This document shows, piece by piece, positions 4,702 through 30,722 of a stretch of DNA of 64,000 nt. The translations under genes and the position numbers were made by a program. Where the stretch lies: positions 217,567 to 281,566 of the IMG/VR virus record IMGVR_UViG_3300049182_000044. One strand, written 5' to 3'. The DNA comes from a virus. Its lineage: Duplodnaviria > Caudoviricetes. A model generated the notes under the pieces. The model was not told where the DNA came from, made no database searches, and worked only from the letters and a program-made list of their open reading frames with translations. Within the stretch, counting starts at the first letter, position 1, and each line of letters starts with the position of its first letter.

Positions 4702-6330
4702 TTATTCGTCGCTGGCCTTCTTGTCCTTCTTGGACTTCTTGCTCTTCGACTTTTCCTTGGCTGTCGCAATTGCCTTGGCCTTCTTCGCCGCAGCTGCTGC
4801 CAACTGCTCTTCGATGCTGTCAATATGCTCCAGCACGTACTTCGCAGGATTCTTCTTGCGGCCTTCGTAGGTCTTGTACTCTTTCTCCAAGTCCTTGATC
4901 TTCGCAACAAGTGCCTTGTCTTCCAGCGCGCGCAATTGGCGAACTTTCAAATCAAGGATTTGGTTTGCCTGATCGACCGTGATCTTCAAACCTTTTGCAA
5001 TGTACTTTGCGAGTTCATCTTCCGAGCATTCTTTCTTCAATGCCTTGAGGATGAAGTCCCGCATCTTCACTGCGAGGCGCATCAGCTCGAGCTTCGCGAT
5101 CTCTTCCTTGCGCTTCTTGATCCAGTACGTACACGCATCTTGTTCGAGCTTGATGCGATAGTCGATCCAGTGCTGAATCAATGCCGGCACCGTTGTCGGA
5201 CGCAGCTTCGCGCCTTCAGTGCCATCGGGGTTCAGGAAGCGATCAGTGACCTGCACACTGAAACGCCACGACGCTGAGAACGCCTCGTTGACCTTCTTGA
5301 GCGCTGTTTTGAGCGCATCGCCTTTGCACGACTTGGCGAACTGCACGACATACGCAACCTGATGTTTGTCATGCTTGTCCGAATCGTCACGCGTCTTGAC
5401 CACGCCTGCAACGCCTTCAACCTTGGCGAGTACCTTCTCGATATCGCTGATCGGTGCGAACTCGTCGAAACGAATCTCGTTCCTCACATCAACATCGGTG
5501 TGCGTCGAGCGGAATGTAACAGCGCCGCGTCCGGTCTTGTAGAAGCGCTTGAACTCTTCCTTGTCGTACACAGCCTTGCCGCCGTACTTGGTAGTGAACT
5601 CCAAGTCCATGCACATCTTAGCCGTGCAAGCGCCTTCCTTGATTGCCTTGCGCACGACTGCGAGCGTAGACTTCAGACCGAAGGACGGGGTTCGAGTATT
5701 CACACCAGGCGTGATACCGAAGTTGCCGTTCAGGATTGTGTTCGGCAACAGGGCTGGCAGAATCAGCGGCTCCATCTTCGACCCGTCGTAGTTCGGGACG
5801 TAGTCGATTGTCGGCAAGTAGAACGGATCGAAGAACACGAGGTCCGAATACAGACTGAGGCGCATGTTCGTGTAACGATACGCCGCTGCGCCGTCGTTCA
5901 TCGTACCCCAGTTGCCCTCGCCGTCAACGAGGTTCATCGGGGACTTGGCTGCCGTGATGATCGCTCCGTAACAGGCCATGTCACCGTGCGGGTGGTAGTT
6001 AGCGAGCGTGTCGCCTACAACCTTCGCCGACTTGTCTGCCTTGACGTTGTGCCGCAAACCCGCTTTGTGAGCCGACCACAATGCACGACGCGCAACCGGC
6101 TTCAATCCGTCAATCGACCCGAAGATCGCTCGGTCTTCGATGACCGCGATACCGTACTTGTAGTACTCCTCGTTGGCTTTGTCCTCGAGGTGCACATCAG
6201 TAACAGTCTTGGCCATCGCTACGATTGAACGCATGTCGCTGGCGAAATCAATCGGGGCGCCTTTGCCCTTCTTGACTTTCTTGGCCTTCTTCTCAGGCTT
6301 GTCGGCCTTCGCCTTTACCTTCTTGACCAT
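4702..6330 (-). CDS. gyrA: type IIA DNA topoisomerase subunit A (GyrA/ParC-like), no C-terminal pinwheel
   Basis: DGLKPVARR, VVGDTLANYHPHGD, GNWG..DGAAAYRYT catalytic Tyr motif, P..LPN.ILNG..GI..G; 542 aa. Confidence 0.95.
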   Translation of the reverse strand: MVKKVKAKADKPEKKAKKVKKGKGAPIDFASDMRSIVAMAKTVTDVHLEDKANEEYYKYGIAVIEDRAIFGSIDGLKPVARRALWSAHKAGLRHNVKADKSAKVVGDTLANYHPHGDMACYGAIITAAKSPMNLVDGEGNWGTMNDGAAAYRYTNMRLSLYSDLVFFDPFYLPTIDYVPNYDGSKMEPLILPALLPNTILNGNFGITPGVNTRTPSFGLKSTLAVVRKAIKEGACTAKMCMDLEFTTKYGGKAVYDKEEFKRFYKTGRGAVTFRSTHTDVDVRNEIRFDEFAPISDIEKVLAKVEGVAGVVKTRDDSDKHDKHQVAYVVQFAKSCKGDALKTALKKVNEAFSASWRFSVQVTDRFLNPDGTEGAKLRPTTVPALIQHWIDYRIKLEQDACTYWIKKRKEEIAKLELMRLAVKMRDFILKALKKECSEDELAKYIAKGLKITVDQANQILDLKVRQLRALEDKALVAKIKDLEKEYKTYEGRKKNPAKYVLEHIDSIEEQLAAAAAKKAKAIATAKEKSKSKKSKKDKKASDE

Positions 6331-13710: not shown

Positions 13711-13788
13711 TGAACCTAATGGTTCTGCGAATCATGCAGTGCAGATCCCCTACGTCTACATTATAACATGAAAAATCGGAAACGTCAA
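13711..13788 (-). promoter_or_regulatory. sigma70 promoter P1 with downstream operator-like element
   Basis: TTGACG-17-TATAAT (13783-13788, 13760-13765); AACC-TAAT-GGTT element 35 nt from the -10; leader shared with P2. Confidence 0.85.
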
Positions 13789-13906: not shown

Positions 13907-14428
13907 TTAATGGTGATGCCGCACTTTTGCAGAAGGCTGTTTCAACGTCAAGCTGTGCTTCGACACCTTGCAGGAGCGACGATGCTCCGTTAAGGTCTCT
14001 AGTGCCGATGACGCAGGTTTTCTGCTTCGGCTACGAGAAGTAACAGACATTTCGTTCTGTTCCTTCAAGGGCTTTTCGCCCGGGATCGAAGTGGTCATCT
14101 CACTCGCCATTTCAAAGTCTCCCCAGGTTTCATCCGCCTCGTTCAGGATTTCCATCCCTTCGCAATCGAAGACGAAGCCTTCCTCGACCTTCTTGGCAAC
14201 CGCCTTCGACAGCCTTTGCAGGACGTCGGAGATGTTATTGCAAACAGTCTCGGAGTTCTTCACGTTCAACGGCGTTGAGCGAGAATGAGTGAATGTCACT
14301 CGAGTGAGTAGGTACTGCTTAGTCTTGATGACGTATTCAGCATGAATGATGCATTTTGCTGAAGTGGTTTCGGAAATGGCACGTTTAAGAAATGCCACTC
14401 CCAGGCTGATGCGGGTATTTGCGTACAT
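13907..14428 (-). CDS. hypothetical protein (possible WGR-like segment)
   Basis: ATG at 14428 after GGAG; KAVAKKVEEGF resembles a WGR-domain end (weak). Confidence 0.6.
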   Translation of the reverse strand: MYANTRISLGVAFLKRAISETTSAKCIIHAEYVIKTKQYLLTRVTFTHSRSTPLNVKNSETVCNNISDVLQRLSKAVAKKVEEGFVFDCEGMEILNEADETWGDFEMASEMTTSIPGEKPLKEQNEMSVTSRSRSRKPASSALETLTEHRRSCKVSKHSLTLKQPSAKVRHHH

Positions 14429-14543
14429 GAGGAACTCCAGGTTCAGATGTGCGCGACCCATCCCGAGGCTCCGGTCGCGCATGGACTTTTACGATGATTA
14501 ACATTTTGTATTTTCTTCCTTAGTATAGATACTATCGGCTACC

Positions 14544-14810
14544 GCCACATCGGGGCATCGACCGCTCGGTCGCCATACCCGTGGGCTCTAGCAGTAACGG
14601 ATTGTACCAACGGCTGGTTCACATCCCGTAATGAGCAATAGAGGGGATGCCGATCCTTAGTCAGTGAACGCCAGTCTTCTTCGTTATAGTCTCCAAGAGA
14701 AACGAATAGCGTTAGCTCTTTTCATCAATGACTTACTTCCAGTTCAGTAAACCGCCGCCTCGTACTGAACCTTCGTGCTGCAATCTTTAGATCGTCTTAT
14801 TCGATATGGC
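14544..14810 (-). ncRNA. candidate structured non-coding RNA, family unassigned
   Basis: About 270 nt without a credible ORF; terminal helix GCCATATCG/CGATGTGGC encloses several hairpins. Confidence 0.5.
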
Positions 14811-14839
14811 CTCCCTTTCTTTACGGTTAATGGGTTGAC

Positions 14840-15373
14840 TTACTTCTTCTTGCGTTTGGCCGGCTTCACCTCCTTAGGTTTGGCCGGTTTGATACGAGCG
14901 GCGTAGCGGAACTTACCGCGCACCATGAGCTTCAAGCTAAAGCTATCGAGGAACTCAGGAGTAAGCCCTGTCTCGCTGTACACGCGAGTAATCCTGAAGC
15001 CTGCCGCCACGCCCTTCTCGAAGGCGTTCAGCGTCAGCTTGCTCTTGTACCGATACTCGCCGTCCTTAGTCTTGTACTCAACGTCATACAAGGGCGCTTC
15101 GAGCTTGAAATACGGAGGTACGAGCCAGCGTGTGCCTAAAGCCTTCGCTTCAGGATGTTGAACGAAGCGCATTGCCTTGAACGACTCAGGCGGCGTTTCG
15201 TTCGTACCGACTTCAACGATGAAGTTCAACTGCGCCTTCACCAAGGTGCGAATGTTTTCGATTGAGTATTCAATACTCGCAATACCATCCTCCCTTGCTG
15301 GGCAGTATTGCTGCTCTTCGAGTTTCAGTACCCGATCAATCTTGAGCAGGTTGTCAGTGATGTACAAGATCAT
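14840..15373 (-). CDS. hypothetical protein, paralog of 30201..30722
   Basis: MILYITDNLLKIDRVL vs MILFITDNLLKVNQVL; K-rich end. Confidence 0.85.
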   Translation of the reverse strand: MILYITDNLLKIDRVLKLEEQQYCPAREDGIASIEYSIENIRTLVKAQLNFIVEVGTNETPPESFKAMRFVQHPEAKALGTRWLVPPYFKLEAPLYDVEYKTKDGEYRYKSKLTLNAFEKGVAAGFRITRVYSETGLTPEFLDSFSLKLMVRGKFRYAARIKPAKPKEVKPAKRKKK

Positions 15374-17756: not shown

Positions 17757-17811
17757 GCTGTTCTCCTTAACTGGTTGGTAAATTTCAAACAATGGGGCTT
17801 GCGCCCCGATT

Positions 17812-18316: not shown

Positions 18317-18441
18317 GCAAACCTGATGGTTCTGTGAATCGCGCAGTGCAGATCCCCTACGTCTACATTATAACATAGATTCTGCGTTTTGTCAATAAAT
18401 CAACCCCTGACGGTCTAGGCTGCCAAAACCGTCAGGTTTGC
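18317..18441 (-). promoter_or_regulatory. promoter cassette P2: sigma70 promoter between inverted 18-bp elements
   Basis: TTGACA(18390-95)-17-TATAAT(18367-72); GCAAACCTGATGGTT 18317-31 and AACCGTCAGGTTTGC 18427-41. Confidence 0.9.
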
Positions 18442-30200: not shown

Positions 30201-30722
30201 TTACTGATGCACCTTGCGTGTTGATTTCTTGCCGTTGCTCGCCTTCTGCATACGAGCATAACAGAAATCACCTTCCTCAACTACTTCAAGTCCGAATCGC
30301 CGGAGGAAGGATTTCTTGAATCGCTTGCTTTGTTCGGGTGCGATGCGACGTACACGAACGCCGGACTCGATTGCGTGCTTGAGTGCCTTTTCGGTCACGC
30401 CACTCTTGAATGCAACCTTGTCTTCCTTCTTGTACTGAATCGAGTATGTTTCAGGTGCTTCGGCACGCGAAGGAACATATTCAGGTACGAACATGCGAGT
30501 GCCTTCTGCGTACAGCTTGAAGTTCAAGTGCTTCGTCGGAATCTTCTCGCCCTTTTCGAGATCGAGGACGAAACGAATGCGGTTCTGGTACAGCTTCTTG
30601 ATGTTGGACTTCGAGCACTTGATCGACGCCGGTGTTTCGTGATCCCCTGCTGAGAACTCGTTCTCAGCAAGCGGCAGGACTTGGTTGACTTTCAGCAGAT
30701 TGTCGGTGATAAACAGAATCAT
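30201..30722 (-). CDS. hypothetical protein, paralog of 14840..15373
   Basis: Shared N-terminus and internal similarity. Confidence 0.85.
   Translation of the reverse strand: MILFITDNLLKVNQVLPLAENEFSAGDHETPASIKCSKSNIKKLYQNRIRFVLDLEKGEKIPTKHLNFKLYAEGTRMFVPEYVPSRAEAPETYSIQYKKEDKVAFKSGVTEKALKHAIESGVRVRRIAPEQSKRFKKSFLRRFGLEVVEEGDFCYARMQKASNGKKSTRKVHQ

Follow-up and report, generated by a model that had tools for sequence, protein, structure and literature searches.

Does the 411-nt gap between two genes of a putative jumbo phage hold a conserved RNA, and what might such an RNA do there? The gap lies on the minus strand of a 64-kb window (the whole stretch of DNA analysed, 64,000 nt), between a gene for a 177-aa protein and a gene for a protein with a predicted WGR fold. 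A preliminary description had placed in it a candidate novel, stand-alone non-coding phage RNA at 14544-14810 with its own promoter and a helix closing its 5' and 3' ends, and had proposed an Rfam scan and a search for covariation among homologues as checks.

The locus and its relatives

The window is the 3' end of a 281,566-bp virus contig, 51% GC. One conserved gene was 26-32% identical to its counterparts in phages NCTB, PaBG and Erwinia/Dickeya jumbo phages, and the nearest GyrB was that of Rhizobium phage RHEph12 (47%). As these matches are distant, the source genome is classed by its sequence as an uncultured jumbo phage to which a close isolate is absent.

Relatives were found via homologues of both flanking proteins. 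Ten more metagenomic contigs (L001-L008, L010 and L011) displayed the same gene order, with an upstream protein 46-61% identical to that of the window and a gap of about 205-460 nt between the flanking genes. The comparison set therefore comprised 11 sequences (the window and ten relatives), and the alignment across groups was made by hand. The coordinates of all features are collected in Table 1.

Table 1. Features of the RNA locus and its surroundings (window coordinates)
Feature	Position	Strand	Basis or remark
Structured RNA element, 244 nt	14528..14771	-	Synteny in 11 loci, helix table, covariation
P1 hairpin, whose loop (14762-14750) forms the 5' half of the pseudoknot	14741..14771	-	Stem changes on both sides (window, L001, L002)
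P2 arm with internal loop 14712-14706/14680-14674	14659..14733	-	Comparison; loop conserved in 7 of 11 loci
P2b hairpin with conserved 16-nt loop	14622..14649	-	Two-sided changes in 3 of 8 pairs
Pseudoknot 3' strand, partner of P1 loop 14759-14751, directly 5' of P3	14609..14618	-	Loop/partner classes
P3 hairpin, variable tip, C-C mismatch 14599/14537	14528..14608	-	Comparison
Shine-Dalgarno (SD)-like GGGAGG with no AUG behind it	14810..14815	-	Similar motif 5' of the RNA in most relatives
Leader ORF, 39 codons, SD at 14521-14516; 44-nt overlap with the WGR gene, -1 frame	14385..14504	-	10 of 11 loci
P5 hairpin within the leader ORF, about 12 nt 5' of the WGR SD	14450..14481	-	Counterpart in nearly all loci
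Stand-alone WGR-fold protein (predicted), 173 aa, acidic motif, basic tail	13907..14428	-	True start 14428, not 14482 (alignments)
177-aa gene, always directly 5' of the RNA	14840..15373	-	Family not found, best fold Z 5.0
Sigma-70 promoter at the head of the RNA's operon, consensus (12/12, extended -10)	18367..18395	-	Promoter scan
Next sigma-70 promoter, 3' of the WGR gene	13760..13788	-	Kept by 8 of the 9 RNA-bearing relatives checked

Outside this set, blastn and tblastn against cultured phages gave zero matches for the RNA or for either flanking gene. Profile and RNA-model searches of RHEph12, NCTB, PhiXhv-15, PaBG and BCSR5, run without a positive control, were empty, and scanning IMG/VR, JGI and GTDB for the flanking proteins and for RNA patterns brought up no relatives. 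A loose RNA pattern matched 73 times in these scans, the upstream hairpin being absent in all but one doubtful case. The RNA, or any RNA motif linked to WGR, was not described in the literature searched, in which subscription papers were thinly covered. Within its genome the RNA is single-copy, as a descriptor search yielded no convincing second copy. A non-coding stretch at G000 89928-90132 (plus strand) passes the loose descriptor; by eye it is unlike this RNA and may be another structured RNA. A paralogue of the 177-aa gene (34% identity) lies at 30201-30722 of the window, minus strand; its next gene begins 30 nt later, so that no RNA stands behind this copy.

A fold conserved at the RNA level

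In all 11 gaps the same parts were found in the same order, namely P1, a P2 arm that varies greatly in length, a short strand and P3; the helices in this 11-locus table were placed by hand. The RNA measures 120-274 nt in the relatives (smallest in L011, 120 nt). Its P1-P2-pseudoknot-P3 core was kept in the window and all ten relatives, with an atypical pseudoknot in L010, which has a P1 loop of only 3 nt and a G-U-rich pairing. The C-C mismatch of P3 is present in 9 of the 11 loci, P2b is confined to the four closest sequences, and A-rich single-stranded flanks lie on either side of the RNA.

The window sequence alone folds like its shuffles, with z = -1.2 for 14544-14810 and z = -0.6 for 14528-14771. 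This would fit a DNA-level element (an origin or a protein-binding array) or a chance structure, as would a set of only 11 sequences aligned across groups by hand. Since the single-sequence fold is no better than chance, the support for an RNA comes from the homologues. When the four closest sequences were aligned with MAFFT, 92% of the cells paired, and 19 of 66 pairs showed two-sided changes, compared with 2-4 in slid controls; the structure under test was derived from one of those four sequences, a bias in its favour. When RNAalifold was run without that structure, P2, P2b and P3 reappeared together with the long-range pairing, and two-sided changes were counted in 20 of 62 pairs. P1, which crosses the long-range pairing, was not drawn in full.

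A second group (L003-L005) displayed two-sided changes in 9 of 17 pairs of P2, against 0-3 in slid controls. A covariance model of this group found L008 (E 7e-4) and L002 (E 3e-3) at the syntenic site, with 145 kb searched, and missed the window copy and L001. These matches tie the two sequence groups together. They also speak against a DNA-level element or chance, as do the counts of two-sided changes, which stem from tool-made alignments, and 3-5 G-U pairs in P3b that are compatible with the minus strand only; either origin is considered highly improbable.

The loop of P1 falls into four sequence classes (GGCGGC, GGCG, GCAGCA and TCAGC), and its partner strand changes along with it. For the loops of L003-L007 and L011, exchanging their own partner for that of the window group weakened the pairing by 1.4-8.8 kcal/mol. 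Against shuffled targets, the loop/partner pairing gave p values of 0.002-0.018 in five loci and of 0.04-0.11 in another five; among the four closest sequences the 3' strand of the pseudoknot is invariant. A descriptor tuned on these loci returned the same boundaries in 8 of 11 and matched 5 of 220 shuffled gaps. Judged from the aligned loci, the P1-P2-pseudoknot-P3 fold was thus shown to be conserved at the RNA level on the minus strand, and two-sided changes above the slid controls provide the covariation that the preliminary description had proposed to look for.

All the helices drawn in that description could be formed where it had placed them, and three of them, the P1 hairpin (14771-14741), CATCCC/GGGATG (P2b, 14649-14622) and P3c, the inner stem of the 3' hairpin, carry compensatory changes. 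Comparative support was missing for its closing helix and for two internal helices. The latter, AAGAG-AACG and CTGG-GTTCAC, are not in the RNAalifold consensus and occupy bases of the conserved internal loop and of the pseudoknot. The closing helix (14810-14802/14552-14544) is a perfect 9-bp duplex in this genome, 3 kcal/mol better than the alternative, but it is not conserved and shows zero compensatory changes: the duplex scored -16.2 kcal/mol in the window, and its equivalents in the three closest relatives scored -8.7, -5.1 and -4.6 kcal/mol. The compatibly varying P3b (14598-14589/14547-14538) competes with it. The 3' end moves from 14544 to 14528, and the element extends from 14771 to 14528.

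The internal loop of P2 contains a strand, ACGCTA, that is invariant in the seven loci sharing the loop. It reads GCUA/GAA, where AGUA/GAA is usual for the sarcin-ricin or loop E motif, and judged by its bases it may be a loop-E-like variant. Bulged-C variants of this motif exist (PMC8450098). The window also has a sarcin-ricin-like 9-mer where the P1 loop meets its base; the relatives do not conserve it. The loop of P2b (14643-14628, minus strand) holds CUCAU(U/A)A, restricted to the four closest sequences and, in the form present in L001, equal to the anticodon loop of an initiator tRNA.

It had been stated that the RNA lacks the motifs of tRNA, tmRNA, RNase P, SRP, group I/II introns and common riboswitches, and this held: the proposed scan with Rfam 15 cmscan gave no hit at the gathering score (best E 0.67 for the window stretch, none below E 1.9 for the relatives), and no tRNA or tmRNA match was found in the RNA stretch. 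A new ribozyme class, self-cleaving or self-splicing, would agree with a pseudoknot stacked on a hairpin, with the size and loop conservation, and with a GCG after the pseudoknot strand in five loci, as in pistol. However, no Rfam ribozyme or intron hit appeared at any threshold, almost no nucleotide is invariant in the alignments of all 11 loci, P2 closes 5' of the pseudoknot strand, unlike in pistol, and the hammerhead core is absent in most loci. This reading is therefore held to be very doubtful. Pistol and hammerhead themselves were rejected, as Rfam gave no hit and helix order and core bases do not fit. Of the roles offered in the preliminary description, ribozyme lacks a known core and nothing indicates a guide; a scaffold or decoy role is possible. 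On these comparative grounds the RNA is regarded as a real, uncatalogued family, so far limited to one uncultured jumbo-phage clade.

Leader frame, operon and possible function

The earlier statement that the RNA contains no ORF was borne out, since a conserved open frame through it was not found; readthrough, frameshift or bypass across the RNA were rejected for the same reason. Behind P3, 23-32 A/U-rich nt with an SD-like AGG lead to an ATG in 10 of the 11 loci. In all ten this distance is kept despite an RNA length between 129 and 274 nt and a 5' spacer of 8 to 86 nt, and the leader frame is stop-free, has 35-56 codons and overlaps the next gene in a fixed frame, ending 41-89 nt inside the WGR gene. 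The distances from leader ATG to WGR ATG were 58, 61, 70, 73, 76 and 79 nt, all 1 mod 3, for which the probability would be about 0.004 if the six lengths were independent. The leader peptides are poorly conserved; with the frame kept, this suggests that translation matters more than the leader product. The downstream hairpin of the preliminary description, P5, is real (14481-14450), but lies inside this leader ORF, which had been overlooked. In local folds the WGR SD is mostly paired (mean unpaired probability 0.23-0.48). The loop of P5, in the window (14450-14481) and relatives, often carries GGA motifs, a feature of CsrA/RsmA sites; a CsrA gene was not found in this genome.

The protein encoded downstream is, according to its structure model, a WGR-fold protein. 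The model had a pLDDT above 90 for residues 11-90, and its fold matched the WGR domains of 2ra8, PARP1 and PARP3 with Z 8.9-10.0. Four PARP WGR domains were among the top five VIA-align rows (rmsd 2.0-4.0, 72-88 aligned), the best Foldseek E was 0.045, and there was no sequence match to Pfam PF05406. Nucleic-acid binding by this fold is seen in PARP1-DNA structures (7s68, 4dqy). For the upstream 177-aa protein neither a recognisable family nor a clear fold was obtained.

The RNA sits 3.6 kb inside an operon headed by a sigma-70 promoter, and similar sites were found 2.2-5.6 kb upstream in five relatives. With the next promoter after the WGR gene, the latter is the last gene dependent on the upstream operon. 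No conserved promoter or terminator of the RNA's own was detected in the 11 loci, and no terminator was called on the minus strand between 13907 and 14840; a terminator-like hairpin at 17807, inside the operon, may attenuate the transcript. Given this promoter layout and the lack of a terminator from 14840 to 13907, we infer that the RNA is most simply part of an early polycistronic mRNA. The AACCGTAAA promoter that had been proposed upstream of the RNA was not conserved in the relatives: the copy has a core mismatch to AACTGTAAA, and none of the ten relatives carries a match with at most one mismatch in the gap. As neither promoter nor closing helix is conserved and the RNA lies inside a polycistronic unit, at a fixed distance from the leader ORF, the reading as a stand-alone gene was not supported, while synteny, covariation and the lack of Rfam hits uphold a novel, uncatalogued structured phage RNA. 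Elsewhere in the genome, AACTGTAAA has 19 exact copies (nine plus-strand copies at 24.9-104 kb and ten minus-strand copies), most of them a short way 5' of a gene. In the relatives, ACTGTAAA is found at corresponding positions, though not in front of the RNA. Judged by position and recurrence, AACTGTAAA/ACTGTAAA is likely a phage promoter motif.

From this arrangement the RNA most likely controls the amount of WGR-fold protein made. The form of control tentatively favoured, at somewhat below an even chance, is a cis-acting, protein-binding translational leader that couples WGR synthesis to translation of the leader ORF. Ribosomes on the leader ORF would melt P5 and a weak stem at the WGR ribosome-binding site. 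The stack of pseudoknot and P3 with its C-C mismatch would form a protein platform beside the A/U-rich leader start, joined in the long forms by the internal loop of P2, and a protein bound there would stop leader initiation and lower WGR output. The ligand would most likely be the WGR-fold protein itself, in a feedback comparable to that of T4 gp32 at its pseudoknot; alternatively, it could be the upstream 177-aa protein or a host factor.

Several observations were counted in favour of such a leader: the constant spacing from P3 to the leader ATG despite the variable RNA and 5' spacer, the single frame kept between leader ATG and WGR ATG over a poorly conserved peptide, the mostly paired WGR SD, and the nucleic-acid binding of the WGR fold in the PARP1-DNA structures. 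The fixed 3' spacing may, for its part, reflect just the room needed by the ribosome-binding site. Co-loss was counted as well. L011, with the smallest RNA, has no in-frame leader, and the gap of L014, a locus that keeps both flanking genes, carries a plain hairpin but neither a leader ATG nor a match to the descriptor. Both encode short WGR proteins (121-125 aa versus 165-182 in the others) with a basic tail of 19-27 aa, versus 63-77 aa where the leader ORF is present; the argument concerns these two loci only, in a tree without resolved branching. In L014, an 80-aa ORF (5650-5892) stands where the other loci have the RNA and uses the SD left orphan there; it looks helix-turn-helix-like by eye, and no homologue was found in the window genome. 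Counted against a cis-acting leader were that P3 covers no ribosome-binding site, that no conserved alternative fold was found in the 11 loci, and that the long forms are richer in conserved loops than an operator requires. A conserved two-state switch, in which P1 exchanges strands with P3, gained no support when tested.

Because both flanking genes are syntenic, position alone cannot separate action in cis from action in trans. A small RNA cut from the early operon transcript, serving in trans as a scaffold or decoy and probably complexed with a neighbouring protein, is nearly as likely as the leader, though in itself doubtful, as the long forms exceed the needs of an operator and no switch was found. 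It would account for a modular fold complete in itself, in which several loops are conserved and an expression platform is missing, for the A-rich single-stranded flanks, and for the long basic WGR tail being found only with the longer RNA forms; moreover, the phage has further RNA genes (three tRNA-Lys genes and a two-piece, permuted tmRNA at G000 79748-83611). Set against this are the lack of a conserved promoter or terminator, the single copy with none found away from the locus, the lack of antisense targets of the P1 or P2b loop at any gene start in the genome, and the leader ORF, which is left unexplained. A more specific variant, in which the RNA released from the early operon would be bound by the WGR protein as a phage ribonucleoprotein of a new class and act in trans in host takeover or counter-defence, is thought unlikely.

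The SD-like motif 5' of the RNA could be attributed to a role in mRNA stability or processing. The transcript would be cut in the A-rich spacer, and the leader/WGR message would be shielded at its 5' end by the orphan SD and pseudoknot, or 3' decay of the upstream genes would be blocked by P3. An SD without a start codon, as seen in most loci, stabilises mRNA in Bacillus (PMC3997798), and GGAG with an A-rich 3' side matches a RegB-type cut site of T4. However, orphan SDs are frequent in the genome as a whole (15 of 37 intergenic regions), a search for a RegB gene, run without a positive control, was empty, and the conserved internal loops exceed what a blocker needs, so that this role seems improbable. 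In eight loci an ATC or ATT follows the orphan SD (window 14815-14800, minus strand) by 3-8 nt, which may represent a decayed start or a non-AUG start; a minigene beginning there was rejected, as the lengths and frames behind it are not conserved.

A further possibility is a switch of the IncI/IncB type, in which leader translation would move the P1 loop to the P5 region and free the WGR ribosome-binding site. The order of pseudoknot, leader ORF, hairpin and gene is that of repY/repZ, and in the window the pairing that the P1 loop can form with the P5 loop region (-14.0) is stronger than its cognate one (-11.9). Apart from a weaker equivalent in L006, however, this pairing was absent from the other eight loci tested (2 of 10 in all), and extended alternative duplexes exceeded the null in only 2 of 11. 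On the antisense strand no conserved sigma-70 site was found (6-9/12), sigma-70 being the sole promoter type scored. Such a switch is scarcely probable, and the protein-binding leader stays the preferred reading.

Comparison with known systems

The RNA constitutes an uncatalogued pseudoknotted family whose natural variants, 120-274 nt long, mark a minimal core (P1, pseudoknot and P3) that is easily probed. Its reach is limited, as the element was found in one uncultured clade only. If the ribonucleoprotein reading were true, a free WGR domain would be a dedicated reader of structured RNA; if the cis-acting leader were, a stand-alone phage WGR-fold protein would gain its first ligand, and the RNA would be a phage case combining pseudoknot, leader ORF and translational coupling.

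Retron msr-msd and DRT ncRNAs were rejected as relatives, since the flanking proteins are not RTs and the terminal helix is not conserved, and so was a type III antitoxin RNA, given a single unit without tandem repeats and no terminator at 13907-14840, minus strand. Like the large phage RNAs ROOL and GOLLD, the present RNA is phage-encoded, covarying, pseudoknotted and not assigned a function, but it is much smaller, has no Rfam match and lies between protein genes outside the tRNA island. In three-stemmed frameshift pseudoknots of the coronavirus type, the loop of a stem pairs downstream and a third stem lies inside the connecting loop. The same three-stem topology is found here; unlike those elements, the RNA follows a stop codon, outside a conserved frame, and has no conserved slippery site.

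The closest likenesses are to T4 gene 32 and to the plasmid replication leaders. The gene 32 leader contains a pseudoknot and an A+U-rich stretch and is subject to translational autoregulation, and a 2010 review considered it possibly the sole viral pseudoknot in this role (PMC3014915). As in that operator, a pseudoknot stands upstream of the initiation region in a phage mRNA, and the downstream gene encodes a protein with a predicted nucleic-acid-binding fold. The A/U-rich stretch may have a counterpart in the 23-32 nt that run into a ribosome-binding site here, though these follow P3 and precede the leader ORF. In contrast to gene 32, the fold here spans 120-274 nt, its pseudoknot encloses one hairpin and is followed by a second, fold and gene are separated by a leader ORF, and the protein is of the WGR fold rather than a gp32-type SSB, its autoregulation being a proposal.

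Coupling through a leader peptide is described for R1, IncI1 and IncB/O plasmids (PMC8053102). As in repY-repZ of IncI1 and IncB/O and tap-repA of R1, a hairpin-loop pseudoknot, a presumably translated leader ORF and a probably coupled downstream gene occur together, and the leader ORF overlaps the gene start, with the frame kept in 10 of 11 loci. The differences from repY-repZ are that the partner of the loop is found on the 5' side of P3, some 100 nt ahead of the leader ATG rather than beside the gene's SD, and that the downstream gene is not a replication initiator. The RNA resembles both T4 gene 32 and repY/repZ and is best described as a member of neither.
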